From NCBI GenBank assembly GCA_902778895.1, contig CACYZF010000004.1, positions 69,821 to 133,820 on the forward strand: a DNA stretch of 64,000 nucleotides, written 5' to 3'. Source of the DNA: an uncultured bacterium. Lineage in GTDB: Bacteria; Verrucomicrobiota; Lentisphaeria; Victivallales; UBA1829. Numbering within the stretch: position 1 is the stretch's first letter; each line of letters begins with the position of its first letter. The position numbers were made by a program, and so were the translations under genes. The notes under the pieces are model-generated. The model saw only the letters and a list, made by a program, of their open reading frames with translations, did not search any database and was not told the origin of the DNA. Below, piece by piece: positions 31,515 through 50,634 of the stretch.

Positions 31515-31521
31515 GCTGAAT

Positions 31522-33346: not shown

Positions 33347-33358
33347 GCGAGGCTGATT

Positions 33359-33607: not shown

Positions 33608-33630
33608 GCGTTCGCTTTTTAACTCGATTC

Positions 33631-33673: not shown

Positions 33674-33678
33674 TTGAC

Positions 33679-34236: not shown

Positions 34237-34249
34237 ACGAGGTGCGGCA

Positions 34250-34915: not shown

Positions 34916-34917
34916 AC

Positions 34918-36663
34918 ATGACGAACACACTTCCGACAAGCGTATGGGGCGTATTCAAAGCCCGCAGCACCGAGCTGGCGAAGGGAAACTCCGGCGCGGC
35001 GCTCGCGATTACGCTCGCGTTCGTCATGCCGATTTACCTGATGGTGATCGGGATCTACGGCATCGGCGAAGTGGTGCGGAACAAGATCGAGATCCAGAAC
35101 GCGGCGGACGCGGCGGCATATTCCGCGGCGGTCGTGCAGGCGGACTACCTCAGCCGCATGGCGACGGTGAACAAGGCGATGGCCTGGACCTACGTGGACC
35201 TGCAGAAACGTTCGCTCGACCTGGCGATGGATACGTTCTGCGCTACGGTCTTCACCAATTTCTCCAAAGATTTAGCAATGTGCGTCTCGCAGAACAGCCC
35301 GTGCCACATGCATACGCCGGGTCTCAATTGGAACTGCGGAACTGACGAACTCGTCTATGACAGCGTTCTCAAATTCGCCGGAACGGGCGTCGGCCTCCCG
35401 CTTGTGGCAAAGGAGTTCAACGGACAGGGGATGCTGTCAAGATTCCTGCTCAACCAGACCTATCATATCGCCGTGGCGAACATCAAGGGGAAAGGCACCG
35501 TCAGCAATCTGCCGAAGGTGATGACATACAGCTACAACATCATCAAGATGACAAAGAAGCTCGTCAATCTGAGGGACGAATACCAGAAAAAGGTCAAGGA
35601 GACCGCCCAGCAGATCGCCATCGCGAACATGATGGAATGTAAGGACGATTATTATGTAAAAGTCCACATGGGCGACATCAATCTGAGCTTCCTCACCATG
35701 CCGGGGACCGACGAAAACGAACAGACTTTCATCGCGTTTGCCGACCCGACGCTGAAGAGTTTCAAGCCGAAGGACGTGTTCGGCCGGGGGACGGACGTCT
35801 GGGTGAAACAGAAATCGCCCGTCGGCTTCTGGCGCGTTTACAAGCAGCAGAAAAAAGTCCTGTATGCGGAATGGGACTGGTTTTGGACCAAGTGGCGTCA
35901 TGTTCAGATCCTGTGGTATCAGGCCCACCTGCCGCCTTTCGCGCGCGGCTCCGGCGGCTGGAAGCGCGGCCACCCAAAGATCAAGGGAACCGACTTTCCG
36001 CTCATCAAAGAGAATATGCCAATCGGCCTGGTCGTTACGCCCGCGATTCCGATCACGCTTCTGCCGACCTTCTTCGGCAAGAGCGGGACCATCACGGTCG
36101 CGATCGTGCGGAAAACGGCGAATCCGCTGGCGAAATTCGACGGTCTCTTCTCCAACGCACAGTCGCTGACCGCGTCCGGGATACTTTCCGCGTTCAATCC
36201 GAGCGTGGGGAACGGCAGCCGTCCCGAGTTCATGTGCGCCATCGCGACCGCCCGCGCGGGCTACAAGACATACAACAAGGACAAGGAAGCAAAGATGAAG
36301 AGCTCCGACTACAACGTCGGATATGTGAAGGAAAGCCGCGAAAAGGAATGGAACCTGGTGGAGACCGACTGGGACGGCGTGATGCTGCCCGTGAAGCACG
36401 CCTGGGACCAGTGCGCCGGGGTCGGGATGGCGCAGACATTTGTCCCGCTTCCCGGAAGCGGCAGCATCCTGAAAGACATCTTCACCGACCGGAAGGGCTG
36501 GGTCGATTCGAAGGGGAAAGCCGCCGACGAGAAAAAGCTGCCCGAATGGGATAAGCTGAAGCCGCCGGGGGGCCTGATCACCGAGGATAACAAGAACAGC
36601 GGCGGCAAGAACGCCGAACAGAAACTGGACTGGGACAAACTCCGTGACTACCTTGGACATTAA
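34918..36663 (+). CDS. TadG-like (Tad_N domain) pilus assembly protein
   Basis: GNSGAALAITLAFVMPIYLMVIGIYGIGEVVRNKIEIQNAADAAAYSAAV matches the TadG/Tad_N pattern. 581 aa. Confidence 0.7.
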   Translation: MTNTLPTSVWGVFKARSTELAKGNSGAALAITLAFVMPIYLMVIGIYGIGEVVRNKIEIQNAADAAAYSAAVVQADYLSRMATVNKAMAWTYVDLQKRSLDLAMDTFCATVFTNFSKDLAMCVSQNSPCHMHTPGLNWNCGTDELVYDSVLKFAGTGVGLPLVAKEFNGQGMLSRFLLNQTYHIAVANIKGKGTVSNLPKVMTYSYNIIKMTKKLVNLRDEYQKKVKETAQQIAIANMMECKDDYYVKVHMGDINLSFLTMPGTDENEQTFIAFADPTLKSFKPKDVFGRGTDVWVKQKSPVGFWRVYKQQKKVLYAEWDWFWTKWRHVQILWYQAHLPPFARGSGGWKRGHPKIKGTDFPLIKENMPIGLVVTPAIPITLLPTFFGKSGTITVAIVRKTANPLAKFDGLFSNAQSLTASGILSAFNPSVGNGSRPEFMCAIATARAGYKTYNKDKEAKMKSSDYNVGYVKESREKEWNLVETDWDGVMLPVKHAWDQCAGVGMAQTFVPLPGSGSILKDIFTDRKGWVDSKGKAADEKKLPEWDKLKPPGGLITEDNKNSGGKNAEQKLDWDKLRDYLGH

Positions 36664-37345
36664 GACGTTATTGAAATCCGGGCGGGGATCGGTCCTGATG
36701 GAATTCGTGCTGGTTCTGCCGGTTTATATCGCGGTCATGGGCGGCACCCTGTGGATCGGGATGAAGTCGCTGGACGCGATCAATCTGCGTTCGGCTGACC
36801 ACTGGTCGGTCTGGAGCGAGGGCAACCGGTTCCAAATGCGTACGCCCGCCATGGTCGCGCTGCGGGACATGTTCCCGCGTTCCACGCTGGCCACGACGAA
36901 CGCGGCGCGGCGTCTGGAGGCGGAACACAGCTATCTGCAGTTCATCGCGTCGAAGACCACGATCATGGAGACTCGTCCGGACTATATCTCGAACTGGATG
37001 GACATGCCGTACACGATGAGCGGCCAATCGAAATCGCCATGGCAAATCATCCCGGAGCTCTCGATGTCCTCGTCCCGCTTCGGCAACAAGTACACGCAGT
37101 GCATTGTCATGCGCACGAAGGCGTCCAAAACCGCGAAACGCCACTGGCATTCGAGCCTGATCGCCGACAGGGGCATCTGGAAATTCGAGGGAAACGAGGA
37201 CAAGTATCCCTCCAAGTGGGAACTGAAGCTGATGGACAAAATCAAATACAAGGACGACAAGAAGGAAGAAGAAAAGGAACCGAAGAAGATCGACTTCTAC
37301 GAACGCTATGACACATATGAAGACTGGAGCGAGCCGGAGAAATGA
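36644..37345 (+). CDS. TadE-like pseudopilin 2
   Basis: GRG-SVLMEFVLVLPVYIAVMGG. GTG start overlaps the previous gene by 20 nt, so the start is uncertain. Confidence 0.65.
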   Translation: MTTLDIKTLLKSGRGSVLMEFVLVLPVYIAVMGGTLWIGMKSLDAINLRSADHWSVWSEGNRFQMRTPAMVALRDMFPRSTLATTNAARRLEAEHSYLQFIASKTTIMETRPDYISNWMDMPYTMSGQSKSPWQIIPELSMSSSRFGNKYTQCIVMRTKASKTAKRHWHSSLIADRGIWKFEGNEDKYPSKWELKLMDKIKYKDDKKEEEKEPKKIDFYERYDTYEDWSEPEK

Positions 37346-37788
37346 AGCGTCTGATGCCGTTCTTTCTGGTCTTCCTGCTGGTCTTCCTTTGCGGCACCGG
37401 ATTTCTGATGCTGAAAAGCGTGACCGCGAAGCCGGAGCCGCCCCGTCCGCAACAGCGAATAACGGAGCCCGTCAAGGGCGTCCTTCCCGCGCTGAATCTG
37501 CAGGACGAATCGAAGACCGCGCCGGGGACGGACAGCTGGGAATTCGAGGGACAGGTCAACTCGAATTACATTTCGACCAGAACGAAGTTCAGCGCGGCGC
37601 TGCTGCATGACGGCTGGAAGCCGGAGCGGCAGATCACGCTGGACGACAAGCTGTCTCCGCGCGTCCTGCTGACGTTTCAGAAGGGCGACCTGGAACTGAC
37701 CTTGATGCTGTGGAAAATTGATACCGGTACGACCGGTTTTACGTATCGGAGGGATCGAATCATCAACCCCGGAGTGGAACTTCAATGA
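37342..37788 (+). CDS. signal-anchored protein, function unknown
   Basis: ATGA-coupled on both sides. N-terminal MKRLMPFFLVFLLVFLCGTGFLML. No recognisable motif. Confidence 0.5.
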   Translation: MKRLMPFFLVFLLVFLCGTGFLMLKSVTAKPEPPRPQQRITEPVKGVLPALNLQDESKTAPGTDSWEFEGQVNSNYISTRTKFSAALLHDGWKPERQITLDDKLSPRVLLTFQKGDLELTLMLWKIDTGTTGFTYRRDRIINPGVELQ

Positions 37789-38861
37789 ACGAAAAAGACG
37801 CATCGTTTCTTGTCCTGTTTCTGGCGCCCGTCAAGGACTATCTGGCGGACGACAAGGTCTCGGAAATCCTGATCAACGGCCCGAACCAGATCTATATCGA
37901 GCGCGGCGGCAAACTTGAGGAGACCGAGGCGAAATTCGCCAGCGAGGCGCAGCTGAAGGCCGCCGCCGTGAACATCGCGAAATCGGTGGACCGTCAGCTG
38001 GACGAGATGCACCCCGACCTGGACGCCCGTCTCCCGGACGGTTCCCGCGTCCACGCCACGATCCCGCCCATCAGCCGCTGCGGCACGATCATCTCCATCC
38101 GCAAGTTCAAAAAGGATATGCTTACGCTGGAAAAACTCGAGGGATTCGGCAGCGTGCCGCATGAGGGCGTGCTGCTCCTGAACGCCATCGTGAAGTTGAG
38201 AAAGAACACCATCGTCTCCGGCGGAACATCCTCCGGCAAGACGTCCGTCCTGAACGCACTGAGCGGGCTGATCCCGGACAAGGACCGCATCCTCGTGCTG
38301 GAAGACGCCAGCGAGCTTCAGCTTCAGCAGCGGCACTGCGTCTACTTCGAGACACGCAAGCCGGACAAGAACGGACAGGGCGAGTTCTCCATCCGCGACC
38401 TCGTGATCGCGTCCCTGCGTCTGCGTCCCGACCGCCTGGTCATCGGCGAAATCCGCGGCGGCGAGGCGCTCGACCTGCTGCAGGCGATGAACACCGGCCA
38501 CTCCGGCTCCATGTCGACCATCCACGCGAACACCCCGGTGGATGCCCTGAGCCGTATGGAAACATGCTCCATCATGAGCGGCATCGAAATGCCGCTGACC
38601 GCCATCCGCATGCAGGTGGCCTCCGCCATCAACTGCGTGGTTCACACCATGCGCCTGCCCGACGGTTCCCGCAAGATCGTGGAGATCGCCGAGATCCTGC
38701 CGCTGGAACACGGCGAATACCGCACGCGCACGCTGATGAAGTGGCACACGGATTCGCTCGCGCCGGACGGGACCGTCTCCGGACGCTTCATCCTCGGCGA
38801 AAAGCCTTCGTTCGCCGACGACGCGAAGATCATGGGCATCGAGCTTCCGGACTATCCATGA
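37785..38861 (+). CDS. CpaF/TadA/VirB11-family secretion ATPase (short form, no FHA)
   Basis: Walker A GGTSSGKTS. Asp box ILVLEDASEL. Walker B RPDRLVIGEIRGGEA. His box GHSGSMSTIHAN. Confidence 0.9.
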   Translation: MNEKDASFLVLFLAPVKDYLADDKVSEILINGPNQIYIERGGKLEETEAKFASEAQLKAAAVNIAKSVDRQLDEMHPDLDARLPDGSRVHATIPPISRCGTIISIRKFKKDMLTLEKLEGFGSVPHEGVLLLNAIVKLRKNTIVSGGTSSGKTSVLNALSGLIPDKDRILVLEDASELQLQQRHCVYFETRKPDKNGQGEFSIRDLVIASLRLRPDRLVIGEIRGGEALDLLQAMNTGHSGSMSTIHANTPVDALSRMETCSIMSGIEMPLTAIRMQVASAINCVVHTMRLPDGSRKIVEIAEILPLEHGEYRTRTLMKWHTDSLAPDGTVSGRFILGEKPSFADDAKIMGIELPDYP

Positions 38862-39757
38862 CGGGAAACGGGTCCGGCAGCGCATTTTTCTCCGGCGAAA
38901 TCGTCTGCGGCAGCGTTCTTCAGCAGCTTCTCCGCGTACGGGAAAACAGCCGGGAGATCTGGCTGGCGTACGATACCGGCCTCAAGACCCATGTCATCCT
39001 CAAATTTATCCGTGAGGATGATCGAGGCGCGGAGCATCTTCCCGAACTTGCGGATTTCCTTATGCGGACGAAAAGCCCGTCGCTGATCCGTGTTCTGGAA
39101 GCACCGCAAAAAGTTGCCGGATACATCGTCGAAAAACAGGAGTATGCCGTCGGCGGCTCGCTGACATCAAGACTAAAACACTCGGGCAGGCTTCCCCTCG
39201 CGCAGACCGTCTATGTCATGCGGGAGGTGCTTCTTGCATTACAGGAGCTCCATACGAACGGGATCATTCACCGCGACATCAAGCCCGGCAACATCCTGAT
39301 CGCGTCGGACGGCGAGATCAAGGTGGGGGATTTCGGGATCGCGCGTCCGGTGCGGTTTTCGGAGAAAGGCCCCGATGTCTTCGGCACGCCGTCCGCCATG
39401 TCGCCCGAACAGACGCTCGACACGACGAAAGTCGATTGCCGCACGGATTTCTTCAGCCTGTCGTCCGTGATATATGAACTCCTGACATGGCGTCCGCGAT
39501 TTCCGCACGGGACACTGCTGGAAACGGGTGCGCTTGTCAGGAAAAGCCGTCCGGAGGACCTGGTGCGGGATTTGCAGCCGTTTGCAACGACGGACCTGTG
39601 TCATCTGCTGGGCTGGATGGCGGAACCGGACCCGGTGAAGCGGCCCCCGACAGCCGGGATCATTCTGGAAGAGCTTGACAGGCTTCGGCTGCCCTGCGAG
39701 CCATTGTCAGGAGAGCGGAAAACGCCGGAACAGCAGAGCCCGCCGGAACGAGCTTGA
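38858..39757 (+). CDS. Hanks-type Ser/Thr protein kinase
   Basis: Start trimmed to MTGNG (ATGA overlap with the ATPase stop). VILKFI Lys, catalytic loop HRDIKPGNIL, DFGIA, GTPSAMSPE. Confidence 0.9.
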   Translation: MTGNGSGSAFFSGEIVCGSVLQQLLRVRENSREIWLAYDTGLKTHVILKFIREDDRGAEHLPELADFLMRTKSPSLIRVLEAPQKVAGYIVEKQEYAVGGSLTSRLKHSGRLPLAQTVYVMREVLLALQELHTNGIIHRDIKPGNILIASDGEIKVGDFGIARPVRFSEKGPDVFGTPSAMSPEQTLDTTKVDCRTDFFSLSSVIYELLTWRPRFPHGTLLETGALVRKSRPEDLVRDLQPFATTDLCHLLGWMAEPDPVKRPPTAGIILEELDRLRLPCEPLSGERKTPEQQSPPERA

Positions 39758-40534
39758 ATCCTCCAGAAACGCGGGCGTTTTTCCTTTCGCCAGCGTTTTG
39801 ATCTCGCGGTCGGACAAGCGGAGCAGAACGGGTTCCGGGCGCAGATGGAGTTCGCGCAGTTTCTTCGCGGCGGACCGAATCCGCAGATGCAGCTGGATTT
39901 CCCGCAGAAGAACCGCAAGCGGGATCAGCAGAAACACCGGATGCAGAGCAGCGAACGTCAGCCCGCCGAAGAACAGAACCGGTATCTCCCATCTGCGGAA
40001 CAGATTCCCGGCCAGACGGCGGAACCGTGATTTGTGAACCTGGCAGGGGAAATACTCCTCATACACCGATACGGGATACGCGATCCGCAGAGCATGGACC
40101 ATTTCGTGGGCGAGCGTTTCGGCGGCATCGTAGCCGTGGTGGCGGCTTTTATTCAGGAATGCACCGGACAGGAAGACGATAGGGATGATCTTCTCCAGGA
40201 TGAGCGTCACCCCGGCGGAAAAACGTCCGGTCTCCCCGCTGGAACAGGATACGGGAATCCAGCGGGGGCTCGCGCCGTACAGGCCGGAAACCGTCCGCTC
40301 CGCCTCCTCGCGGATGCCGCCGGGCAGCGGACGCGCATCGGCAGGCGGCTCATAATCCCATTCCGTGCACATGGCCGCCAGACGCTTCTGAAATTCTTCC
40401 GGCGATTCCTGCGGAGCGACCAGCAGCCCTTGCTCATCCAGACCGCACAACTGGTCCGCAATCGCGGGAAAGCCGTCTTCCGGGCCGTTTAAGGCCGCAT
40501 TCAGCGCTTGGATGTCCGGCAAGTCAAGTTTCAC
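39707..40534 (-). CDS. membrane protein with a HExxH zinc-metalloprotease motif
   Basis: GTG start overlaps the flp3 stop. LAHEMVHAL. C-terminal hydrophobic helices (IPVLFFGGLTFAALHPVFLLIPLAVLL). The 3' end overlaps the kinase gene by 51 nt, convergently. Confidence 0.55.
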   Translation of the reverse strand: MKLDLPDIQALNAALNGPEDGFPAIADQLCGLDEQGLLVAPQESPEEFQKRLAAMCTEWDYEPPADARPLPGGIREEAERTVSGLYGASPRWIPVSCSSGETGRFSAGVTLILEKIIPIVFLSGAFLNKSRHHGYDAAETLAHEMVHALRIAYPVSVYEEYFPCQVHKSRFRRLAGNLFRRWEIPVLFFGGLTFAALHPVFLLIPLAVLLREIQLHLRIRSAAKKLRELHLRPEPVLLRLSDREIKTLAKGKTPAFLEDSSSFRRALLFRRFPLS

Positions 40535-40725
40535 GGGATCGGCAGGGAAATGACGGTTACGATGCGCTGGTACATGGATACCACAGCCTTGCCGACCGTG
40601 CCGAACCCGCCGGAAAACAGTTTGTTGGAATAGACGGCCGCGGACGCTCCGAAAACGAGCGGAAGGATCGAACAGACGAGGAGCACGTATTCCAGCAGAA
40701 CGCCGTGTTTTTTCCGAATTCTCAT
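40531..40725 (-). CDS. flp: Flp-type prepilin 3 (divergent)
   Basis: MRIRKKHG-VLLEYVLLVCSILPLVFG. 64 aa. ATGA-coupled to the upstream FHA gene. Confidence 0.65.
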   Translation of the reverse strand: MRIRKKHGVLLEYVLLVCSILPLVFGASAAVYSNKLFSGGFGTVGKAVVSMYQRIVTVISLPIP

Positions 40726-43112
40726 AAATTCAGACTCCTGACCCAGTTGAAGATCGGATCGCCCGGGATGCCGTTTTTGATCACATAATCCTTGATCTCC
40801 ACCGCCTTCTTTTCATCCATCGGATCGTACGAGTAGACGAAGGTTTGCTGTTCCAGACGGAAATTACGCCATTCCTCGCCGAACGCCTGCATCTGCGCCG
40901 GGATTTCCGGTCCGGGCGGCGCGAAGAAGAAGTACGCGGTCTTCGCGAGGAAATACTGCCGGTTGTTCTTGTGGCGGGCAGCGATATTCAGACATGCCTG
41001 GAGAACGACTTCCCTCGTTTTCAGGATCGCCTGATAATAATCCCTTGTTTCTTCGATTTTACCATGGAGGATCCATTCGTTTTGCGGGAGATTGAGCCAG
41101 ACAAGCGCTTCGGCAACCATGCGATACATATCCTTGAGCCGAATGCACAGCGGGACATACTGGATATCAGGGATCAGGTCGGTCGCGTAAATGTTGTTTG
41201 TGGAATGGACCGTCTGTTGAAGGACCTCGTAGAAATAACGTTCTCCGAAGAGTTTTTCGTACTCCTCCGATATAACTCTTGATCCGACGGGGAAAACACT
41301 TGGAAGCGAGATCACCTGTTCGATCAAAGCCTCATTGGAGAACAGCACGATCTCTTCCGGGAGCTTGCCCAAAACCAGATTGTATGGCGCAAGCGTCTCC
41401 TGCAGACCCTGCCATTGGGTCCGGACGCGCATCTGAGCCTGAAGACGATCCTCCATGTGTTCCCGAAGTTTGAAAAGCTGTGGAATCTTGATGCATTCGT
41501 CCAAAGAAATCAGGCGTATGGTGCGAATGTCGTCCATGCGCAGGTCGAACAGCATTTGATCGTTTTCATCCAGCGCTTCGATGTTGTCCCGGATTGTCCC
41601 TATCCTGACGGACAGTTCCCGCATATAGATCCTGAGAATACCGGAAATGTTCTGATTTTCACGCTTCAGATAGTCGATAAAAGCGTCCATCTGCTTCAAA
41701 TCCCTGATAACGGACACGTTGTCCAAACTCGATTCGATCTCCTTCAGCATGGTATTGTCATGCTCCAGTTCCGTCAGCAAATGGAGAATTTCCTGATAAA
41801 GCGGTTTCAGATAGTCCGGAACCGCGCTTGTTTCGATTTCCCCGTTATGATCGAAATCTTCCGACAAGCCGTTTTTCAGTTCATCTATCAGTTTTTCCTT
41901 CACAGGCTTCATTTCTTTCCATTTTTCCTTCAGATTGGCAACTGTCGTGTCCAAAGTCGTCACCATATTGTGCATAGACACCAGGACATCCAGCAGATAC
42001 TTTTCATGTGCGACCTGATTCTGGATGACGATCGTCTCAGGATCCGCCTGATTCCATGCGTCCGGATCTTCAAGTCCAAGTTTTCCGTAACTTTCCGCCG
42101 CATGTTTCCATTTACTGTCTTTCAAATCGTTCCGGAACTCAAGAAGCGCCTTGTAGGAATTCTCATAGTTCGGGATATTGGTGGAATAATCGCGGTATTG
42201 TTTTTCATAGCGCTGGAACCCTTTGGAGTCCGGCATTTTGGTCAGAACGCGCTCAGCCGCGCCGTAATCGTTCTTCCTGAGATAAAAATCAATGACGTCG
42301 ATCACCGTTTCGGTTGCCGGAAGCGACATGTAGTAAAGCCCGAAGCAGCCCGCGGCAACGAACAGGGTCAGCACGAGAATCAAAATCTTTTTTCCGAAGT
42401 GGGTCCGTGTATGAACGACGTTCCGGTCGAGGAACGCATAATCGAAACAGGCGATGGAAATATCGTCCAAATCCATCAGCATGCGCTCCTGCCGCTTCAG
42501 TCTTTCCCCGTTGACGAACGTGCCGTTGGAACTGCTCAAATCCTTTAGCCAGGTCTCTCCGTTTTCGGCGATGCGGATCTCCGCATGGCGTCTGGAGACC
42601 ACGTCGGATTTCAGGACCAGGTCGTTGTCGGAGGCGGAACCGATCCGGAACGGACTCTTCTCCAGCCGGATTATTTCTCCGTCCTTGTCGCCGCCGTGTA
42701 CTTCCAGACGATGCACATCGCAGGGGATGCGTTCGGATTTGGACGTGATCCTGACAAAGACTTCGGAATCCCCGATGGAGGCCCGGTCGTTCTTTTTCAG
42801 GACGGCGGAGGAAACGCTTTCTCCATGGACGTGAATACGGTTGTTCTCGCACGCGGTCAGTTTCACGCCGTTCTGAACGACATGCAGTTTCGCATGGTGT
42901 TCTCCGCACGATTGGTCCGTCTCCGGTATGACCAGATCGTTATCCTGCGCCCGTCCGATGGTCAGCGTTTTGTCCGGATCGTTGATCAGGACCGTCTGAA
43001 ACAGTTTGCCGCGGCAACGGAATTCAAGAGAATAACCGACCGTCCGCCTCCGGCTCGTACGGGCGTTATCTTCCGAAGTATTCGAACTAGTTTTTGATTT
43101 TGAAAAAGCCAT
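40722..43112 (-). CDS. double-FHA, single-pass membrane protein with a large uncharacterised C-terminal region
   Basis: FHA1 is TIGRAQDNDLVIPE...HAKL...NRIHVHGE. FHA2 is FRIGSASDNDLVLKSDVVSRRHAEI...SSNGTFVNGERL. TM helix ILILVLTLFVAAGCFGLYYM. About 520 aa follow with no motif I recognise. Confidence 0.8.
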   Translation of the reverse strand: MAFSKSKTSSNTSEDNARTSRRRTVGYSLEFRCRGKLFQTVLINDPDKTLTIGRAQDNDLVIPETDQSCGEHHAKLHVVQNGVKLTACENNRIHVHGESVSSAVLKKNDRASIGDSEVFVRITSKSERIPCDVHRLEVHGGDKDGEIIRLEKSPFRIGSASDNDLVLKSDVVSRRHAEIRIAENGETWLKDLSSSNGTFVNGERLKRQERMLMDLDDISIACFDYAFLDRNVVHTRTHFGKKILILVLTLFVAAGCFGLYYMSLPATETVIDVIDFYLRKNDYGAAERVLTKMPDSKGFQRYEKQYRDYSTNIPNYENSYKALLEFRNDLKDSKWKHAAESYGKLGLEDPDAWNQADPETIVIQNQVAHEKYLLDVLVSMHNMVTTLDTTVANLKEKWKEMKPVKEKLIDELKNGLSEDFDHNGEIETSAVPDYLKPLYQEILHLLTELEHDNTMLKEIESSLDNVSVIRDLKQMDAFIDYLKRENQNISGILRIYMRELSVRIGTIRDNIEALDENDQMLFDLRMDDIRTIRLISLDECIKIPQLFKLREHMEDRLQAQMRVRTQWQGLQETLAPYNLVLGKLPEEIVLFSNEALIEQVISLPSVFPVGSRVISEEYEKLFGERYFYEVLQQTVHSTNNIYATDLIPDIQYVPLCIRLKDMYRMVAEALVWLNLPQNEWILHGKIEETRDYYQAILKTREVVLQACLNIAARHKNNRQYFLAKTAYFFFAPPGPEIPAQMQAFGEEWRNFRLEQQTFVYSYDPMDEKKAVEIKDYVIKNGIPGDPIFNWVRSLNL

Positions 43113-44590
43113 TATTCGTCAAGCGTCCAGATGTTTTGCATGATTCTGAGATGCCGATAGTCATCGGGCGACGGAAATTTTGAAAGACATATATTGACCA
43201 CATCCCTCATCATGAGCCAGTTTTCACTTTGTTCATAATGCTGGTATGCCAGACACGCCTGCGCGTACCAAAGTGCCTGCCGTTCCCGGAAATCCTGCAG
43301 AAGCCCCAGGGCGTCTTCCATCATTTCCTCATCGTTTGCCTTTCCTGCGAGGGAAAGCAGGAGAGCGAACTTCTGCTTGATCTCCGTCCAGTCGGTGATC
43401 GCGACATTGACCATCATTTTGGACAGCAGGGTGCGGTACAGTTCCGTTTTGGAAACGCCTTCCGGAATGGTCTCCGGGATTTCCCAGTAACTGTTCGCGG
43501 CATCCGGGGAAGCAACGAAACAGCCATAATTGGTCAGGACTTTTTCCGCGCGCCAGTAGTGCTGAACCGGGACTTCGCGCGTAAAAATGATCTCTTTGTC
43601 GTGGTAACGCAAATAGCTGACAAACCCCTGCCACTGGAAATCGTTGTCATTCCGTTTGTATCCCATGGTCTGATAAGGGATGCCGCAAGTCGAGATGGAA
43701 TAGAACTTGTCTTCCGGAAGCTTGAGGAATGTGAAGCCGTGATTCTCTTCCGCATCCTTCTTCCAGTCGCTGAAACTATCCTTGCGGGAAACGACAAAAC
43801 CATCGGGAACATCGTTCACCACAAGTTTCAGGTGGAACACGACATCCAGATGCTTGCCCAGCAAAGTCATCACCTCGCAGTTCGTTTCCGTTTTCTCGAC
43901 CTTTGTCTGGGAACACTCCGGATAATAGATCATGAAATTTCCCTTGGGCGGCAGCTCGATGCGGAATTCCCCGTCGTTGAAAACTCCGGTCACTTCACCC
44001 GGCCAGGTCACGGGATTTTCCAGCTCCAATTCGGAATAGAGGAAACCGCCTCCGATCACCGCAAGCAGCAGAATGACCGCAAAGGCAAACGTAAACTTCC
44101 TGCGGCTGGTCTGCTTCTGAGAAAAACGCCTCAGATCGTCAAGTTCCTCCTCGGAGGCGTAACGGGTCTTATCTTCTTTTTTTTCTCCGCTTTCCGCTCC
44201 GCCGTCGACCGTGCCGTCTTCCGTCGTCTCGTCGTCATCGGGTGAGAAAGGCGAAGACATCACCACCGGGATCGTACCGTCTTCTTCCTCGATGCTGAAA
44301 AACAGCTTCTTCCCGAGACGCACGGCCATTCCGGGCTTCAGTTCCGTCTCCATGCCGGGTTCCAGCTGTTTGTCGTCGACGAACACGGATTCGGCATAGG
44401 ATTTGAGGACAAGCGCGGAATCGGACTCCCGGACAAACAGGAATGCATGCTGAATCGCGATGTCCTCTCCGCCCGGACGGATTCCCGCCGTTTGCGATTT
44501 TCCGATCATGACCCCTTCGGCCGGCACGACGAAGGACCTGCCGGAGAGCTCGCCGCCTGTGAAGAGGATCTTGTAATATTTTGATTCCAT
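43112..44590 (-). CDS. FHA-domain single-pass membrane protein with an uncharacterised C-terminal domain
   Basis: N-terminal FHA-like domain (VMIGKSQTAGIRPGGEDIAIQHAFL...VFVDDKQL), acidic linker, TM helix FAFAVILLLAVIGGGFLY, then about 300 aa of unknown function. Confidence 0.7.
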   Translation of the reverse strand: MESKYYKILFTGGELSGRSFVVPAEGVMIGKSQTAGIRPGGEDIAIQHAFLFVRESDSALVLKSYAESVFVDDKQLEPGMETELKPGMAVRLGKKLFFSIEEEDGTIPVVMSSPFSPDDDETTEDGTVDGGAESGEKKEDKTRYASEEELDDLRRFSQKQTSRRKFTFAFAVILLLAVIGGGFLYSELELENPVTWPGEVTGVFNDGEFRIELPPKGNFMIYYPECSQTKVEKTETNCEVMTLLGKHLDVVFHLKLVVNDVPDGFVVSRKDSFSDWKKDAEENHGFTFLKLPEDKFYSISTCGIPYQTMGYKRNDNDFQWQGFVSYLRYHDKEIIFTREVPVQHYWRAEKVLTNYGCFVASPDAANSYWEIPETIPEGVSKTELYRTLLSKMMVNVAITDWTEIKQKFALLLSLAGKANDEEMMEDALGLLQDFRERQALWYAQACLAYQHYEQSENWLMMRDVVNICLSKFPSPDDYRHLRIMQNIWTLDE

Positions 44591-44604: not shown

Positions 44605-45510
44605 TCAGAACAAAGGAACGCCCGATTCTTTCATTTTCAGAAAGACCGGCGTAAGGATGATAATGAACACTGCCGGAAGGATGAAAAGCGCCATCGGAAG
44701 CAACATCAGGGACGGCGCACGCTGAGCTTTGCATTCGGCGATCGAGAACCGCAGTTTGCGCATTTCCTCGCTCTGGATATCCATCGTATCCGCCAGGGAC
44801 GCGCCGAGTTCCGTGCCCATCACCACGGCCGACGCGAACGATGTGAACTCCTTGATCTGAATCCGGTCCGCCATGTTCTGGAGCGCGGCCGTGCGGATGA
44901 CGCCGAGTTCCATTTCCCTGAGCATGGTCCGGTATTCATCCGTCAGCGGGCCTTTGACCCCCAAATTCACATAGAACCGGATCGCCGCGGTGAAATCCAG
45001 ACCGCCGCGCATCGCGGATGAAATCAGGTCGATGGAAAAAGGAATCGCCTGAAGGATTTTCGTCTTGCGTTCCTGGACCAGATTGCCAACCGCGATGCCG
45101 GGAAGGAACCAGCCGATGAACACGCCGATCAGCGCCGCGACCGGGATGGCTCCCCGCTGATCCGGAGGGACCACCATCCATGTCCCCATGGCAAACGCCG
45201 CGCCCATCGCCAAAACCAGAAAAATCCGGGCTTCATAGACGAACGCGGGAGCGAGGTCAAGGCCCGCATACTGAAGCTTTTTCCGCATTGCGCGGCATTG
45301 CGCGGGGAAGAGCTTATAGATCAGACTGCCGAACCCGAGCGCGTCCATGATGGCGACGGGTGTGGCGCAGAGCCGGAAGACCGATGGCGTTTCATCATCC
45401 TCTTCCTTCTTTTTGCGCGAGGCGGGAGTGTTGTCCGTGAAGAGAACATATCCCATGACCGGCAGAAGCACCACCAGGAACGTTATCAGATAAATGACCG
45501 TACGATTCAT
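44605..45510 (-). CDS. tadC: TadC-like platform protein (T2SS-F domain)
   Basis: AIPFSIDLISSAMRGGLDFTAAI and C-terminal TM helices typical of the T2SSF family. Confidence 0.8.
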   Translation of the reverse strand: MNRTVIYLITFLVVLLPVMGYVLFTDNTPASRKKKEEDDETPSVFRLCATPVAIMDALGFGSLIYKLFPAQCRAMRKKLQYAGLDLAPAFVYEARIFLVLAMGAAFAMGTWMVVPPDQRGAIPVAALIGVFIGWFLPGIAVGNLVQERKTKILQAIPFSIDLISSAMRGGLDFTAAIRFYVNLGVKGPLTDEYRTMLREMELGVIRTAALQNMADRIQIKEFTSFASAVVMGTELGASLADTMDIQSEEMRKLRFSIAECKAQRAPSLMLLPMALFILPAVFIIILTPVFLKMKESGVPLF

Positions 45511-45511: not shown

Positions 45512-46408
45512 TTACACCTTCACATCCACGATTGCACGGATCACGAAGTATCCGATCGTTTCCAGCGTCAGCATGACCCCGATGGCGCACCATCCGATCA
45601 GCGTTTTCACCATCGGCATCATCAGATCGTTGTTGATGACGAACAGGAGCACGAACGCCAGAAGCGGCGCGAGAGACATGGCAAGCGCTTCGAACCGCCC
45701 CTGCGCCGTCAGCGCCTTCAGCTTCTGTTGAAACTCAATTCGGCCGCGGATCGTTTGCGTAATGCGCTGGAGGACATCCGCCAGGCTTCCGCCGGACTGC
45801 AACGTCAGACGGATCGAAATGATCAGGAGCTGAAGGTCTTCGCACGGCAGGCGGTCGTACATGCGCTGAAGCGCATCCGGCAGCTCCACGCCGAGACGGT
45901 ATTCCTTCAGCACGACGTCGAGTTCTTCTTTCAGGGTACCCTCGCTCCGGCGGGCGAAGACTTCCAGCGCCTGGGGCAAGGCCTGTCCTGCGCGCAGGCC
46001 GCTGGTCAATCCCATGGAGAGATCAAGGATGCTGCCTTCGAAGTCGAGGGCGCGTTTCTTCACTTTCCGGGAGTAATACAGGAGCGGAGCCGCGTACCCG
46101 ATGCCGAGCGCGATCAAACTGACGGGAACCAGCACATAAAACATGTAAACCTTGCAGAAAAGCAGGATCGAAACGATGACCGCCATCAGGAGAATCCCGA
46201 TGGAGAACTGGATCTGCAGCAGGACCTGGGGAGAAACGAAATACCCGATGTCGTTGCGATGTCCGCCGAGGTTCCTGTCTTTGACTTTATGGTCGAAATG
46301 CTCCATGCCGACCTGCTGGACCAGGCCGACGGACAGAAAGATCAGGAGAAACACCGCGGCGAAGACCAGCAGGTAAATCCCGTATTTGCTCAGGAATGAC
46401 GAATTCAT
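45512..46408 (-). CDS. tadB: TadB-like platform protein (T2SS-F domain)
   Basis: LDLSMGLTSGLRAGQALPQALEVFARR. N- and C-terminal TM helices. Confidence 0.8.
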   Translation of the reverse strand: MNSSFLSKYGIYLLVFAAVFLLIFLSVGLVQQVGMEHFDHKVKDRNLGGHRNDIGYFVSPQVLLQIQFSIGILLMAVIVSILLFCKVYMFYVLVPVSLIALGIGYAAPLLYYSRKVKKRALDFEGSILDLSMGLTSGLRAGQALPQALEVFARRSEGTLKEELDVVLKEYRLGVELPDALQRMYDRLPCEDLQLLIISIRLTLQSGGSLADVLQRITQTIRGRIEFQQKLKALTAQGRFEALAMSLAPLLAFVLLFVINNDLMMPMVKTLIGWCAIGVMLTLETIGYFVIRAIVDVKV

Positions 46409-46414: not shown

Positions 46415-48124
46415 TCAGTTCTCCGGTACGAATACGGACATGTCCAGCTGAAGGTCGCCGGACTGCCGGAGTTCATCGATGAAACGCGGGATGTTGCCGG
46501 TCGCCGTATGATGTCCGAGGACATGGAATTTTTCATCGAATCCCTCCTGCTCGAACGTGAAGATGTCCTGCATCAGGATGATGCCGTTTTCGCGGCCCGT
46601 GACCTCGCTGATCTTTACGATCTTGCGGGATCCGTCCGGCAGGCGCGTCTGCTGAACGATCAGGTGGATCGCCGATGCGATCTGTTCCCGGATCGCGGCG
46701 GACGGCAGTTCGAATCCTGCCATCATGACCATATTTTCCAGGCGGGACAGCGCGTCGCGCGGCGTATTGGCATGGCAGGTCGTCATGGAGCCGTCGTGGC
46801 CCGTGTTCATCGCCTGAAGCATATCCAGCGCTTCAGGGCCGCGGCATTCCCCGACGATGATCCGGTCGGGACGCATGCGCAGCGTGTTGATGACGAGGTC
46901 GCGGATCGTGATCCGCCCCTGTCCTTCCACGTTGGCGGGACGAGCCTCAAGGCGGCAGAGGTTCTCATGCGTAAGCTTCAGTTCTGCCGAGTCTTCGACC
47001 GTGATGATGCGTTCCTTTTCGGGGATGAACAGCGAAAGGATGTTCAGGAGCGTCGTCTTGCCGGATCCCGTGCCGCCGGAGACCAGGATATTTCTGCGGG
47101 CGCGGACCGCCTCCTTCAGAAAAAGCGTCATGGCGTGCGTCAGGCTTCCGAACTTCTCCAGGTCGTCCGAGGTCAGCTTCTTCGACGGGAATTTGCGGAT
47201 CGTGACTAGGGAACCGTCGAGCGCGAGCGGGGGAATGACCGCGTTCACGCGGGAACCGTCCTTAAGTCGGGCGTCGACCATCGGGGACGCCGCGTCGATA
47301 TGACGTCCCAGCGGCTCCACGATTCGCTGGATGATCGACTGCAGATGCGCCTCGCTATGGAATTTGGACGGAGTCCGGTACTGCAGACCTTTGCTTTCGA
47401 TGAAAATGTGCTCCGGACCGTTGATCATGATCTCGGAAATGGACGCATCGCGCAGAAGCGGGGAAAGAGGACCGAGGCCGATCAGATTGTCCATCAGCGT
47501 TTGTCTGAGCAGGTCGATGTTTACTTCCGGGGGGATTTCGTGACGGATTTCACGGAGAACCTGATCCACCGCGCTTTCCACCTGCGGACGCATGGAAGCG
47601 TTCGAAAGGTTGTTCTGCGTTTCGTTGTTCACATTGAGCAGTTCCAGAACACGTGTCTGGACACGCTTCGACAGCTGCATCATTTTTTCGGTGAAGAGGC
47701 TCTGCTGTTCCTTCTGCGCCGAATAGATGGGAAGGGTGTGTCCTGATCCGGGTATGGAATCCGGGAGCGGACCCGACGGCATCGAGGCAGAAGAGGAAGC
47801 ATTGTTCCGCAGTGAAACCGCCATGTCAGTCGCGGCTGCCCCCGAACTCGGCTGGACCATGAACTCGAAATCGGAAATGCTCAGGACGTCGCCTGCGATC
47901 AGCTCCGTCTTCTCCTTGACGGGAACGCCGTTTATCCGCGTCCCCGCGTGGCTTTCCAGGTCGCGGACGAACACCTTGCCGTCCTGTTCCGTGATCTCGG
48001 CATGGCGGCGCGACACATGCTTGTCCGGGATTCGGATGTCGGCGTCCTCGTGCCGGCCGATGATCAGACAGCAGCCGGTAGGAAGTTCGATGGAGCGTTT
48101 TTCGTTTTTGAATATAAGCTTCAT
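46415..48124 (-). CDS. cpaF: FHA-domain / CpaF (TadA) ATPase fusion
   Basis: Start trimmed to MKLIFKNEK. FHA is LIIGRHEDADIRIPDKHVSRRHAEI...HAGTRINGV. ATPase has Walker A GGTGSGKTT, IITVEDSAEL, RPDRIIVGECRGPEA and GHDGSMTTCHAN. Confidence 0.9.
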   Translation of the reverse strand: MKLIFKNEKRSIELPTGCCLIIGRHEDADIRIPDKHVSRRHAEITEQDGKVFVRDLESHAGTRINGVPVKEKTELIAGDVLSISDFEFMVQPSSGAAATDMAVSLRNNASSSASMPSGPLPDSIPGSGHTLPIYSAQKEQQSLFTEKMMQLSKRVQTRVLELLNVNNETQNNLSNASMRPQVESAVDQVLREIRHEIPPEVNIDLLRQTLMDNLIGLGPLSPLLRDASISEIMINGPEHIFIESKGLQYRTPSKFHSEAHLQSIIQRIVEPLGRHIDAASPMVDARLKDGSRVNAVIPPLALDGSLVTIRKFPSKKLTSDDLEKFGSLTHAMTLFLKEAVRARRNILVSGGTGSGKTTLLNILSLFIPEKERIITVEDSAELKLTHENLCRLEARPANVEGQGRITIRDLVINTLRMRPDRIIVGECRGPEALDMLQAMNTGHDGSMTTCHANTPRDALSRLENMVMMAGFELPSAAIREQIASAIHLIVQQTRLPDGSRKIVKISEVTGRENGIILMQDIFTFEQEGFDEKFHVLGHHTATGNIPRFIDELRQSGDLQLDMSVFVPEN

Positions 48125-48131
48125 GGACAGA

Positions 48132-49802
48132 TTACCACGTGAACATTCTTTCAAACCACGTTTTCTGTTCGTTTTCCTGGACTTTGAGATTTTCCGCATT
48201 GACCCGTTCGGAAACCTCCTGCTCCAGCGTGGCGTTTTCTTCGGACGGACGCGTCTCCATCTTAAAGTTCTGATCCATCAGTTCCGGCGACACCAGGATC
48301 AGCATCTGGAGTTCTTCGCCCTTGTCTTCTTCGGACGACGCGAACCAGTTGATAACCGGAATATGCCGGAGGAACGCATAACCGGACGGTCCTTCATGAG
48401 AAAAAGTCAGCTCCTTCTGTCCCGCGATGACGGCTGTTTTTCCGAGCGGACAGATCAGCGTCGTCTTGGTTTTGCTCTTGCTCTGGACATAGTCGTCGCC
48501 GTCCCGGACCGGAGGCAGACTCCGTTCCAGATCCAGATTCAGCTTGACCGTATTGTCTTCCTGAAGGAATGCCTGGGCCTTGTATTTCAGTCCGTACTCG
48601 ATCTCCTTCATGTCGGCGGTATCCCGTCCGTACACCTTGACCTGGCGCGTGCCGCCGTTTTCATACGTGGATTCGTCGCCGTTGTTCGTGAGCGTGATGT
48701 GTCCCGCGTCGCGGAAATCGGCGATCCCGTTCTGTCCGAAGAACACCAGAGCCCCCTTCAGATTCGTTTCGAGCGTAATCGAGCCGCCTGCATGCTGGCT
48801 GCCATGGCTGTCGATCGCGTCCTTTGCGCCGCCGTACAGCGCCTTGAACCAGCCAACGACGTCCCACGTCAGGACCGTGCCGTCCGCATTGGCGTTTCCA
48901 AGACGTTCCAGCTGTTTTCTAGTCACGCCGACGAAGACGACTCCGAGGTCGACCTGGGATGGCACGATTCTCAAGTCGGTTTTGAGGCTGGCATTGTTGC
49001 CGTTCCACTCCGGATCCAGCCAGCGTTGCGCCGAGAGGATGGATTCGACCGTTTTAATGCCGTCTTCGGAGTACAGATATCCACGCACGGTCAGGACGGT
49101 CCCGGTAAGGTTCATGGACAGCTTGCCGGGTGCTTCCGGACCGGATTGTTCCTCCACGGGGAATCCGGCGTCCGTCAGCTGTTTTTTCAAATCGGCGATC
49201 AGTTTCGTATCCGGGACAAAAGCAACGTAGCTGTTGCATCTGCTTTCATAGGACTGCAGGATGCGGCGGAAATAATCCCAGTGGACGGGCTGCGTAATGA
49301 TGCCGCGGAGAACAAGCCCCCCGTCGTACATCTGCAGGGTGACTTCCGGAAGCTCCTCCAGAAGACGACTCATTTCCTGATACGTCTGAAGCGTCGAGTT
49401 ATATACCGTGATATGAAAACTCTTCTCGATGCCTCCGGCATGGACCGTGATGACGGCACGGCCGGGCGAAACCCCGGACACCTCGAACGTGTTGGCGTTG
49501 ACATGCTCGATCTTGACGTTGGACGAATCCGATTTGCAGGATTCGATGGTGAACGGCATGCTCAGTACGCGTTTTTCCCCGACGGTGATGGAGATCTGTT
49601 CCTGCATCGGATCGTTCCCGTTTTCGTTCTGCGAACCGAGCGCCTGAGTGATCGCCTTCACGATATCTTCCTGAGATACCTGAACTTCGTTTGCCTGGGA
49701 CTGACCCGGGGCGCCGGACGGCTGCTGAGCCGTCTGGCCCATGCCGGGAAGTGTCAGAAGAATGCCTGCCAGCAGAAGGAATGCTGTCGTAATTCTTTTC
49801 AT
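48132..49802 (-). CDS. cpaC: secretin (CpaC/RcpA type)
   Basis: Signal peptide. C-terminal secretin block GKTAVIAGQKELTFSHEGPSGYAFLRHIPVINWFASS...LILVSPELM. Confidence 0.85.
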   Translation of the reverse strand: MKRITTAFLLLAGILLTLPGMGQTAQQPSGAPGQSQANEVQVSQEDIVKAITQALGSQNENGNDPMQEQISITVGEKRVLSMPFTIESCKSDSSNVKIEHVNANTFEVSGVSPGRAVITVHAGGIEKSFHITVYNSTLQTYQEMSRLLEELPEVTLQMYDGGLVLRGIITQPVHWDYFRRILQSYESRCNSYVAFVPDTKLIADLKKQLTDAGFPVEEQSGPEAPGKLSMNLTGTVLTVRGYLYSEDGIKTVESILSAQRWLDPEWNGNNASLKTDLRIVPSQVDLGVVFVGVTRKQLERLGNANADGTVLTWDVVGWFKALYGGAKDAIDSHGSQHAGGSITLETNLKGALVFFGQNGIADFRDAGHITLTNNGDESTYENGGTRQVKVYGRDTADMKEIEYGLKYKAQAFLQEDNTVKLNLDLERSLPPVRDGDDYVQSKSKTKTTLICPLGKTAVIAGQKELTFSHEGPSGYAFLRHIPVINWFASSEEDKGEELQMLILVSPELMDQNFKMETRPSEENATLEQEVSERVNAENLKVQENEQKTWFERMFTW

Positions 49803-49815: not shown

Positions 49816-50634
49816 TTATTTCGTGGAGTTTGCAGTTTCGTTCGAGAGCAGCGCCGTATCCAGGTCGGAACGCACGGCTTCGAACGTTTTCGAGTTCACG
49901 GCCCCGATTTCCGAACGATTCCGTGCGGACGGATCGTTTCTTCTGCGGAGAATCGGGAAAAGTTCCGCTTCATGCTGTGCCGCCAGCAGGATTGTCGCCT
50001 GCCGGGGAGGAAGGGATACGTAGATCGTGGCGGTCGCACTGCCCGGCTCGCGGAAAAGGCCGTTGCTGTTATCGAGCCCGATCACCTCAATGCAGGGGAA
50101 CAGGATAACGGTTTCGCGTTCCTCCTTCACGTCCGCCTTCATAGCCGCTTCCGGATCCTTGAGCAGCTCTTCCGAGGTCGCTTTCGGGTGTTCGACGTTG
50201 GTGTGTGCATAAAGTGCCGCGATCGCTATTTCGTCCTGCGGACGCAGCATTTTTACAAGGGTCGGATCGGAAAACGTCACCGGGACCAGCCATTGGCCGG
50301 TGGTGACGCAGTCCGCCAGGGAGATGTTCAGCTGAATGTCATCGAACATGACGTAGCTGCCGCGTTTGATCGCACGCGGGATCTTCTGGCCGTAGGTCAG
50401 GCTGACGCTGTCCCAGAGAATCGCGGATTGCGGGACCGCCGATTCCGGCAGGTTTTTGAACGAGCACGCGCCCGGCATGAGCTCTTCTCCCGCTTCAAGA
50501 TCGCGGGCTGCGACCACAACGGATATCTGTGGCTCCTGTTCGGTGTCCTGGTTTTTGACAAGGACGTTGCTCACCATGTAAACGGCTGCAAGTCCCAGGA
50601 GGACGGCTACGATCAGCGGAATGACATTCTTCAT
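49816..50634 (-). CDS. cpaB: CpaB/RcpC-like pilus assembly protein (SAF domain)
   Basis: N-terminal anchor IPLIVAVLLGLAAVYMV. VVVAARDLEAGEEL SAF-type motif. GAGG RBS. Confidence 0.8.
   Translation of the reverse strand: MKNVIPLIVAVLLGLAAVYMVSNVLVKNQDTEQEPQISVVVAARDLEAGEELMPGACSFKNLPESAVPQSAILWDSVSLTYGQKIPRAIKRGSYVMFDDIQLNISLADCVTTGQWLVPVTFSDPTLVKMLRPQDEIAIAALYAHTNVEHPKATSEELLKDPEAAMKADVKEERETVILFPCIEVIGLDNSNGLFREPGSATATIYVSLPPRQATILLAAQHEAELFPILRRRNDPSARNRSEIGAVNSKTFEAVRSDLDTALLSNETANSTK

Follow-up and report, generated by a model that had tools for sequence, protein, structure and literature searches.

A predicted CpaF/TadA-family motor ATPase with an N-terminal FHA domain in a Tad pilus locus of a Victivallales bacterium

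Results

We analysed a 64,000-nucleotide stretch of DNA from an uncultured Victivallales bacterium (the window; GenBank assembly GCA_902778895.1, contig CACYZF010000004.1, positions 69,821 to 133,820), in which a complete Tad pilus gene set is arranged in two convergent operons (Table 1). The gene under study lies in the minus-strand operon, between the secretin gene and the TadB-like platform gene, and its product is here called FHA-CpaF. Profile, structure and alignment searches identify FHA-CpaF as the predicted motor ATPase of a Tad/Flp-type pilus machine of this Victivallales (Lentisphaerota) bacterium. Its modules, an N-terminal FHA domain, a disordered tether of about 35 residues, a three-helix bundle (3HB) and the ATPase, make up the architecture known as class III CpaF.

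Domain architecture of FHA-CpaF

Pfam analysis revealed an FHA domain at amino acids (aa) 21–83 (E=5.5e-18, 65.6 bits against a cut-off of 20.7) followed by T2SSE at aa 216–492 (E=3.3e-63). The top NCBIfam model was a TadA-family model (E=2e-97, under its equivalog cut-off), with the PilT, PilB and GspE models at 1e-13 to 1e-15. In searches of solved structures, Caulobacter crescentus CpaF (9e24) aligned with aa 193–556 (E=9.5e-112; core identity 44–45%), and archaeal GspE/FlaI (1e-40) and VirB11 (1e-33) both ranked far behind it. The Walker A motif reads GGTGSGKTT (aa 350–358); Walker A, the Asp box, Walker B and the His box (NTGHDGSMTTCHAN) were almost entirely invariant among 28 aligned homologs. 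At the other end of the protein, the FHA domain of Mycobacterium tuberculosis FhaA aligned with aa 10–91 (E=1.4e-11), and the N-terminal 108 aa also matched the solved FHA domains of GarA, Rv1747 and EmbR.

An AlphaFold2 (AF2) model, built from a shallow alignment of 28 homologs, showed a beta-sandwich at aa 1–93 (predicted local distance difference test, pLDDT, 76–89), a disordered linker at aa 94–129 (pLDDT <50), helices at aa 135–192 (pLDDT 75–90) and a confident ATPase N-terminal domain (NTD). The C-terminal domain (CTD) was poorly modelled, and that part is covered by its identity to the solved CpaF. The 3HB of the published CpaF architecture corresponds to aa 130–199 (PMC12019362). Foldseek ranked CpaF structures first and matched the FHA part to FhaA (3poa, 3oun) with a TM-score of 0.86–0.87, a root-mean-square deviation of 1.5 Å and 36–37% identity. 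An earlier note, made from the sequence without database searches, had described an FHA-like N-terminal domain, a low-complexity linker and a complete CpaF/TadA ATPase with all four of the above motifs; profile search, FhaA match and beta-sandwich model agree on the first, the linker is both low in complexity and gap-rich in alignment, and the T2SSE match and conserved motifs bear out the ATPase.

Start codon and translation of the FHA domain

The longest open reading of the gene spans 46415–48199 on the minus strand. An ATG at 48124 (MKLIF...) lies 7 nt past the TAA of the upstream secretin gene and gives the 569-aa product; the open frame beyond it is overlap with the secretin gene. The start was analysed in stop-to-stop frames from 80 orthologous loci (54–97% identity), the set used for all FHA-residue counts below, while locus comparisons covered 82 related loci. 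The N-terminal FHA region was present in 80/80 orthologs, each with a start about 20 residues ahead of an invariant Gly-Arg, and distant orthologs carried in-frame stops just upstream of that start. Gene calls on public contigs likewise gave proteins of 549–578 aa with PF00498 and PF00437. Because the open frame, the start position and the FHA residues are kept in all 80 orthologs, the FHA domain is, as far as comparative analysis can establish, translated.

The earlier note had allowed that the true start might lie downstream of the FHA domain, so that this region would be an untranslated annotation artefact. A Shine-Dalgarno-like sequence is not evident in the 7-nt gap before the ATG, as such an artefact would allow, but the conservation of frame, start and FHA residues, the public gene calls and the tight spacing to the secretin gene, which fits translational coupling, all oppose it. 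A downstream start codon was therefore rejected on the strength of the 80 equivalent starts, and we regard this reading as having practically no chance of being correct.

Conservation of the FHA pocket

Across the 80 orthologs, identity to the window protein was 30–44% in the FHA domain, 8–16% in the linker and 78–91% in the ATPase CTD. Within the FHA domain, G23, R24, S38, R39, H41, D55, S58 and G61 were invariant in 80/80 orthologs, and T62 (76/80) and N65 (75/80) were nearly so. The key residues described for the FHA domain of Rad53 are five, of which Gly69, Arg70, Ser85 and His88 bind phosphothreonine (pThr) or shape the site and Asn107 contacts the peptide backbone (PMC5549992). G23, R24, S38 and H41 of FHA-CpaF occupy the positions of the first four. 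The equivalent of Asn107 is Ala60 in the window protein, whose S-H-A-G-T aligns gap-free with S-T-N-G-T of FhaA, and in the 80 orthologs this position holds A, G, T, F or S, never Asn. Since G23, R24, S38, R39 and H41 are kept throughout although the domain as a whole is only 30–44% identical, the alignment indicates that the pocket is under selection, with its phosphate-contacting half strictly kept and the backbone-clamping Asn given up family-wide.

Membrane proteins with FHA folds

Two bitopic membrane proteins of the same operon, p492 and FHA2x, also carry FHA folds. The AF2 model of p492 (pLDDT 84) comprised a degenerate cytoplasmic FHA fold (aa 1–104), a disordered linker (aa 108–142), a long helix with a transmembrane segment at about aa 164–190, and a periplasmic domain with PsbP-like fold matches. 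Foldseek matched p492 to FHA folds including YscD, and the Pfam matches to YscD_cpl and FHA were weak. Its FHA pocket is degenerate, with Gly-Lys in place of Gly-Arg and no SxxH. FHA2x has a transmembrane helix at aa 238–265 and a large periplasmic part; its second FHA domain keeps SRxH and S-x-N-G-T and has lost the phosphate-binding Arg (Gly-Ser for Gly-Arg in 86% of orthologs), which makes it a mirror image of the FHA domain of FHA-CpaF, where Arg is kept and Asn lost. The folds of p492 and of FHA2x domain 2 give a picture of relaxed selection in the same operon, and because these pockets are degenerate, FHA-CpaF carries the best-preserved phosphate reader of the operon.

The linker of p492 is unalignable among orthologs apart from Thr123 (93% conserved) and Thr142 (97%), the latter within T-R-Y-A-S-x-E-E-L, on the cytoplasmic side just before the positively flanked transmembrane helix. 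Threonine makes up 9.2% of the linker, which contains repeated acidic [DE][DE]x[KA]-T-[VIR] motifs; around its Thr residues Asp/Glu are enriched at –2 to –4, Lys/Ala at –1 and Val/Ile/Arg at +1, with DDDATVPP, DIDKTILDE and EEPTEELT as examples, often repeated. From this conservation we infer that p492 is the best candidate for a phosphorylated partner and a plausible ligand of the FHA domain of FHA-CpaF.

Kinases, phosphatases and a second ATPase

The pilin operon that converges on the FHA-CpaF operon also encodes a small, soluble Ser/Thr protein kinase (STPK) without a sensor domain. The kinase gene overlaps by ATGA that of ATPase2, a minimal CpaF-like ATPase, and the kinase is thus predicted to be translationally coupled to ATPase2. 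ATPase2 aligned with CpaF residues 145–490 of 501 (E=2.7e-86); it has no FHA domain and, given the span of this alignment, neither an intrinsically disordered region (IDR) nor a bundle. In the close Victivallales clade, 19 loci retain the convergent ATPase2-kinase arrangement; these are not independent observations. Identity was 79–99% for ATPase2 in the 18 syntenic loci that reach the gene and 34–90% for the kinase across all 19, so that ATPase2 is more conserved than FHA-CpaF (67–97%).

Tad systems are usually described with one bifunctional ATPase; the locus analysed here, in contrast, has two predicted motors.

Kinase and PP2C domains from several loci were used as queries to survey the 82 related loci. 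A kinase and/or PP2C gene was found in 34 of them, and in 26 of the 45 whose upstream flank reaches 5 kb or more; the loci counted are not phylogenetically independent. Up to 1 kb from the Tad genes, kinase matches had a density of 1.8 per 10 kb, against 0–0.7 further out, a local difference that does not prove enrichment. Pfam analysis distinguished at least six non-orthologous kinase/PP2C arrangements beside the operon across lineages of the Planctomycetota-Verrucomicrobiota-Chlamydiota (PVC) group. These are the window type, with its 299-aa STPK after ATPase2; the L028 type, with PP2C (648 aa) and a tandem-kinase protein (1267 aa) ahead of cpaB; L069, with a dual kinase (1217 aa) and an FHA-sigma54 activator ahead of cpaB; the L031 type, with an FHA-kinase-Sel1 protein (1324 aa) divergent from cpaB; L060, with PP2C and kinase directly after FHA2x; and L067, with a kinase-LRR protein directly after FHA2x. 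The repeated recruitment of different kinases to the locus is good evidence, by association, that this Tad machine is subject to Ser/Thr phosphorylation.

The L069 genes (2484–7559 of that locus, from a Kiritimatiellia metagenome-assembled genome, MAG) share the strand of cpaB and directly precede it, and the activator contains FHA, Sigma54_activat and HTH_8. This arrangement suggests pThr control of Tad transcription as well.

Relatives and spread

Among genomes, the best match (97%) was a rumen Victivallales MAG, and the 80 best loci belonged to MAGs labelled Victivallales, Lentisphaeria, Kiritimatiellia, Verrucomicrobia or Opitutales. A relative was encoded in at least 551 species-representative genomes. 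When a library of 1.84 billion representatives was searched with aa 1–215, 2,877 matches were obtained at E<=1e-10, of which the best 150 were multi-FHA proteins with one FHA-CpaF among them. FHA-only tblastn matched GarA, FhaA, EmbR and TagH-type proteins and no CpaFs. The earlier note had raised the question of how often, and in which taxa, an FHA domain is joined to T2SSE. The published set and the PVC genomes answer it, with 17/292 class III members, proteobacterial or from Acidithiobacillia, in the former and at least 551 species genomes in the latter; the large-library survey was uninformative. What is new is the lineage: the class III architecture extends to Lentisphaerota, Kiritimatiellia and Verrucomicrobiota, mostly from gut and rumen. 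A literature search for Tad pili in Lentisphaerae found no paper.

Full-length tblastn of plasmids gave a single match that covered the FHA domain, on a Moraxella bovis plasmid (L083; NZ_CP087831.1), with a degenerate FHA pocket. This gammaproteobacterial FHA-CpaF (9929–11659, 576 aa) has lost the Arg and the SxxH motif and kept the Asn. The L083 Tad locus runs straight into an RHS-repeat toxin gene (14868–19418), an arrangement reminiscent of contact-dependent killing. Two Burkholderia plasmid matches, H6 and H2, were considered as class III candidates and rejected as canonical CpaE-CpaF loci.

Organization of the Tad locus and the rest of the window

Genes in the minus-strand operon lie close together, with overlaps of the ATGA or GTGA kind. 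The core of this operon, CpaB-secretin-FHA-CpaF-TadB-TadC-p492-FHA2x, was present in nearly every locus of sufficient length, and in a clade at about 60% identity the pilin, peptidase, TadE and TadG genes directly follow FHA2x. A CpaE/TadZ gene was sought by tblastn with Burkholderia CpaE: the best match in the window had E=0.56, and the 82 related loci gave no match at E<=1e-3. By contrast, cpaF is directly preceded in Burkholderia L084 and L085 by a gene for an AAA family ATPase, which we take to be CpaE/TadZ. No terminator or promoter was found between the convergent operons.

The last two genes of the minus-strand operon encode a small Flp-like pilin and p275, neither of which had a Pfam match; the pair, kept in about 23–29 related loci, may represent a dedicated pilin and protease. 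In the plus-strand operon, the tandem Flp pilin genes are nearly identical (KKHAVMMEYVIIAVLIAAAVVV) and lie directly upstream of the prepilin peptidase gene. A low-GC stretch at about 29700–33000 (0.48–0.53 against about 0.60) separates this operon from the upstream genes and may be a mobile-element remnant. Further upstream, seven large minus-strand open reading frames (ORFs) at 17263–29487 (1399, 724, 267, 272, 157, 500 and 562 aa), with strand and frame chosen by length only, had no Pfam match at E<=1e-4. Genes for an Fe-only hydrogenase large subunit (9775–11349, minus strand) and a 2Fe-2S/4Fe-4S pyridine-nucleotide oxidoreductase (15072–17108, plus strand) fit a fermentative anaerobe.

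Table 1. Features of the Tad locus and its flank, in window coordinates
Feature	Position	Strand	Evidence
CpaB/RcpC-like protein, first gene of the operon	49816–50634	–	Pfam SAF; NCBIfam pilus_cpaB E=1.6e-20, above curated cut-off
Secretin, CpaC-like	48132–49802	–	Pfam Secretin E=4.6e-10
FHA-CpaF, predicted class III CpaF/TadA motor ATPase, 569 aa + stop	46415–48124	–	Pfam, solved-structure matches, AF2, Foldseek
FHA domain, aa 1–93	47846–48124	–	Pfam, FhaA alignment, 80-ortholog alignment, AF2, Foldseek
Disordered Ala/Pro/Ser-rich linker, aa 94–129, without conserved Thr	47738–47845	–	pLDDT <50; gap-rich
Helical bundle (3HB) region before ATPase NTD, aa 130–199	47528–47737	–	AF2 helices
CpaF NTD + CTD with Walker A, Asp box, Walker B, His box, aa 200–569	46415–47527	–	Pfam, solved CpaF, alignment
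TadB-like platform protein	45512–46408	–	Pfam T2SSF E=8.7e-16
TadC-like platform protein	44605–45510	–	Pfam T2SSF E=6.3e-14
p492, bitopic membrane protein	43112–44590	–	AF2, Foldseek; kept in 74/82 loci
p492 cytoplasmic linker + juxtamembrane motif, aa 105–146, candidate pThr docking site (inferred)	44153–44278	–	Conservation
FHA2x, 796-aa bitopic protein, two cytoplasmic FHA domains (about aa 40–125, 156–220)	40722–43112	–	Pfam FHA E=3.2e-27, 2 stretches; 73/82 loci
Small Flp-like pilin, 64 aa, G/VLLEY motif, ATGA overlap with FHA2x	40531–40725	–	Sequence reading; 29 loci
p275, two-transmembrane protein, HEMVH (HExxH) motif, last gene of the operon, GTGA overlap with small pilin	39707–40534	–	23 loci
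Soluble Ser/Thr protein kinase, 299 aa, HRD, DFG, SPE conserved	38858–39757	+	Pfam Pkinase E=1.5e-31; ortholog alignment
ATPase2, minimal CpaF-like ATPase, 358 aa, NTD + CTD only	37785–38861	+	Pfam T2SSE E=4e-52
Pilin operon before ATPase2	33095–37788	+	Pfam (TadE E=1.2e-9) and sequence reading
Tandem Flp pilins, 83 + 82 aa	33095–33346, 33359–33607	+	Flp_Fap E=7e-4, sub-threshold
Prepilin peptidase	33679–34236	+	Peptidase_A24 E=2.5e-13
TadE-like protein	34250–34915	+	Pfam scan of plus-strand operon
TadG-like protein	34918–36663	+	Pfam Tad E=1.9e-6
Second TadE-like protein	36644–37345	+	Pfam scan of plus-strand operon
p148, 148-aa membrane protein	37342–37788	+	
AAA_14/DUF4143 ATPase, in low-GC stretch	30175–31461	–	
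Small HTH_17 excisionase-like ORF, in low-GC stretch	31942–32331	+	

Discussion

The reading that we favour, and to which we give an even chance, is that FHA-CpaF is docked onto its machine by phosphorylation. In the CpaF hexamer, six tethered FHA domains would act as pThr readers and attach the motor to its own machine by binding phosphorylated cytoplasmic segments of inner-membrane components, for which the Thr-rich linker and juxtamembrane 'TRYAS' motif of p492 are the best candidate. Docking on such segments would in turn mean that a kinase/phosphatase pair gates recruitment of the motor to the TadB/TadC platform, in place of the positioning ATPase CpaE/TadZ. The nearest candidate kinase in this genome would be the soluble STPK that is predicted to be co-translated with ATPase2.

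Several observations weigh against phospho-dependent docking. The absence of the Asn107 equivalent means that canonical phosphopeptide binding is not guaranteed, and Pfam Yop-YscD_cpl, the phospho-independent YscD cytoplasmic family, also matches the FHA domain of FHA-CpaF (E=2.7e-12, above cut-off). The window kinase is coupled to ATPase2 and not to FHA-CpaF; no PP2C phosphatase was found in Pfam scans of 48 window ORFs; and the close relatives L001, L002, L009 and L011 showed no kinase or ATPase2-kinase arrangement within a downstream flank of about 0.1–3.4 kb. Ser/Thr kinases are expected to be numerous in PVC genomes, and the choice of p492 as ligand derives solely from conservation. The earlier note had proposed a direct route from the kinase at 38858 to pilus extension, and this proposal is partly supported. 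The coupled gene, its retention in 19 loci and the kinases and PP2Cs of PVC loci make a link to the motor plausible in context, but the coupling to ATPase2, the four relatives just named and the lost Asn leave it neither direct nor specific to extension.

Some of the same facts would suit a phospho-independent scaffold, in which the FHA fold is a structural module like YscD/PrgH of type III secretion and builds a cytoplasmic ring or cage with the folds of p492 and FHA2x, the nearby kinases being incidental or acting on transcription. The missing Asn and the YscD match are what such a module would show, and the degenerate FHA folds of the partner proteins, the 48/82 loci without kinase or PP2C in the sequence covered, and the kinase followed by an FHA-sigma54 activator in L069, which suggests transcriptional control, point the same way. 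The M. bovis protein, moreover, has lost its pocket, so that an FHA-CpaF can exist without one. However, known or presumed phospho-independent FHA folds lose exactly the residues (R24, S38, R39 and H41) that are invariant here in an otherwise divergent domain, and the operon repeatedly has kinases and PP2Cs, of several unrelated architectures, as direct neighbours. We consider a scaffold possible, if rather unlikely. The FHA domain could instead serve as a kinase adaptor, as in the threonine-phosphorylation pathway of type VI secretion systems (T6SS), by binding an autophosphorylated kinase or adapting its substrate, with the motor as target or as kinase platform. Kinase/PP2C pairs lie next to the operon, as PpkA and PppA do next to Fha1, some locus kinases carry an FHA domain themselves (L031), and the window kinase is small and soluble and has no sensor domain. 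The linker of FHA-CpaF, on the other hand, offers no conserved Thr/Ser as a substrate site, and an FHA pocket that stays invariant beside kinases that are not orthologous from one lineage to the next is better explained by a constant ligand within the machine than by a kinase that changes; an adaptor role seems improbable to us. Still more improbable is intramolecular autoinhibition of the GarA/OdhI kind, in which the FHA domain would fold back on a pThr in its own linker or bundle and switch the ATPase off or on. A tethered FHA domain does resemble GarA/OdhI, which are among its closest solved relatives, and 79% of orthologs have Ser or Thr at position 145, at the start of the bundle; yet this position is Thr in only 50% and lies within a confidently helical segment, and the gap-rich alignment of the linker (aa 94–128, 8–16% identical) contains no conserved Thr.

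Phospho-dependent docking may also be part of a broader scheme, which we think unlikely as a whole, in which the Tad machine of Lentisphaerota, Kiritimatiellia and Verrucomicrobiota has exchanged CpaE/TadZ for a pThr/FHA network. A kinase/phosphatase pair would write multiple pThr marks on the p492 linker, and six Asn-less FHA domains would read them multivalently, so that signalling switches the engagement of motor and platform; in the Victivallales subclade, the ATPase2-linked kinase might control an exchange of two motors, for example between extension and retraction. If docking is true, it would explain how the motor is positioned or gated in Tad machines that lack CpaE/TadZ, and it would tie Ser/Thr signalling to pilus dynamics as the PpkA/Fha1 pathway gates type VI secretion. 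The PVC family offers an invariant Asn-less pocket, a co-encoded membrane protein with near-invariant juxtamembrane Thr residues, and repeated independent recruitment of kinases and PP2C.

Comparison with known systems

The architecture of FHA-CpaF is not new, having been described both as class III CpaF and in KilF. A survey of 292 CpaF orthologs recognized three classes, I without an IDR, II with an IDR and III with FHA, IDR and core (PMC12019362, Nat Commun 2025), and its 17 class III members comprise 13 from Betaproteobacteria, 3 from Gammaproteobacteria and 1 from Acidithiobacillia (PMC12019362 Supplementary Data 1). The sample contained no Lentisphaerota or Verrucomicrobiota, and its Planctomycetota fell in class I or II. 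The remaining 275/292 sampled orthologs belong to class I or II, in keeping with the statement in the earlier note that canonical CpaF and TadA proteins have no FHA domain. Class III proteins such as Achromobacter xylosoxidans E3HIW0 share the module order FHA-IDR-3HB-NTD-CTD with the window protein and are of similar length (508–638 aa against 569 aa). The published members are proteobacterial or from Acidithiobacillia whereas the window protein is from a PVC lineage, and the likeness described here is one of architecture; the canonical Asn, in addition, is absent in the PVC proteins.

KilF (MXAN_3107), the ATPase of the Tad-like Kil killing system of Myxococcus xanthus, is fused to an N-terminal FHA domain, and Kil clusters are rich in FHA proteins (PMC8460266, eLife 2021). 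The Kil system and the window locus thus both combine an FHA-fused ATPase with several FHA proteins (PMC8460266 Supplementary file 1). MXAN_4649, a PrgH-like FHA protein, adjoins the platform genes as p492 and FHA2x do in the window, a likeness drawn from its description, and no CpaE/TadZ is listed for Kil clusters, just as none was found in the window. The two differ in that Kil has one ATPase and is described without TadG (MXAN_4659 has a TadG-like N-terminal domain), whereas the window has two CpaF-like ATPases and a TadG-like gene. The Kil partners KilD and MXAN_4648 combine FHA with TPR, KilD being cytoplasmic, whereas both window partners are bitopic membrane proteins. Kil serves contact-dependent killing of prey; nothing in the window indicates predation. 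Later papers on Kil and Bdellovibrio (including PMC12075869, Nat Commun 2025) did not dissect the FHA domain of KilF, and in the class III CpaF and KilF literature that we found, neither a binding partner of the FHA domain nor its effect on the motor is shown.

With canonical CpaF/TadA proteins (C. crescentus CpaF, class II; Aggregatibacter actinomycetemcomitans TadA, class I), FHA-CpaF shares the ATPase core and nucleotide-binding motifs, and the window shares with canonical Tad loci the neighbouring genes for TadB/TadC, CpaB, secretin, Flp pilins and prepilin peptidase. It differs in the extra FHA domain and in having no adjacent CpaE/TadZ, unlike Burkholderia L084 and L085.

In the threonine-phosphorylation pathway of the Pseudomonas aeruginosa H1-T6SS, which PMC8460266 cites, PpkA and PppA flank Fha1. 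As in the PVC Tad loci L028, L060 and L069, FHA proteins are encoded in the locus of an envelope-spanning machine together with a PP2C phosphatase and a Ser/Thr kinase, but the machine is another one, its FHA protein is a separate scaffold and is not fused to the motor, and no PP2C was found in the window. FhaA (Rv0020c; PDB 3oun, 3po8), the closest solved FHA domain, is a pThr reader docked on the cytoplasmic segment of a membrane protein and was crystallised with the intracellular domain of MviN/Rv3910 (3oun). It has the canonical S-T-N-G-T loop and no ATPase fusion, in contrast to S-H-A-G-T in the window protein. As it stands, FHA-CpaF is an ordinary member of a described architecture in an above-average genomic context, and the features specific to PVC may amount to a variant of it: a pocket without the Asn, a pair of bitopic FHA partners, the absence of TadZ and an ATPase2 coupled to a kinase.

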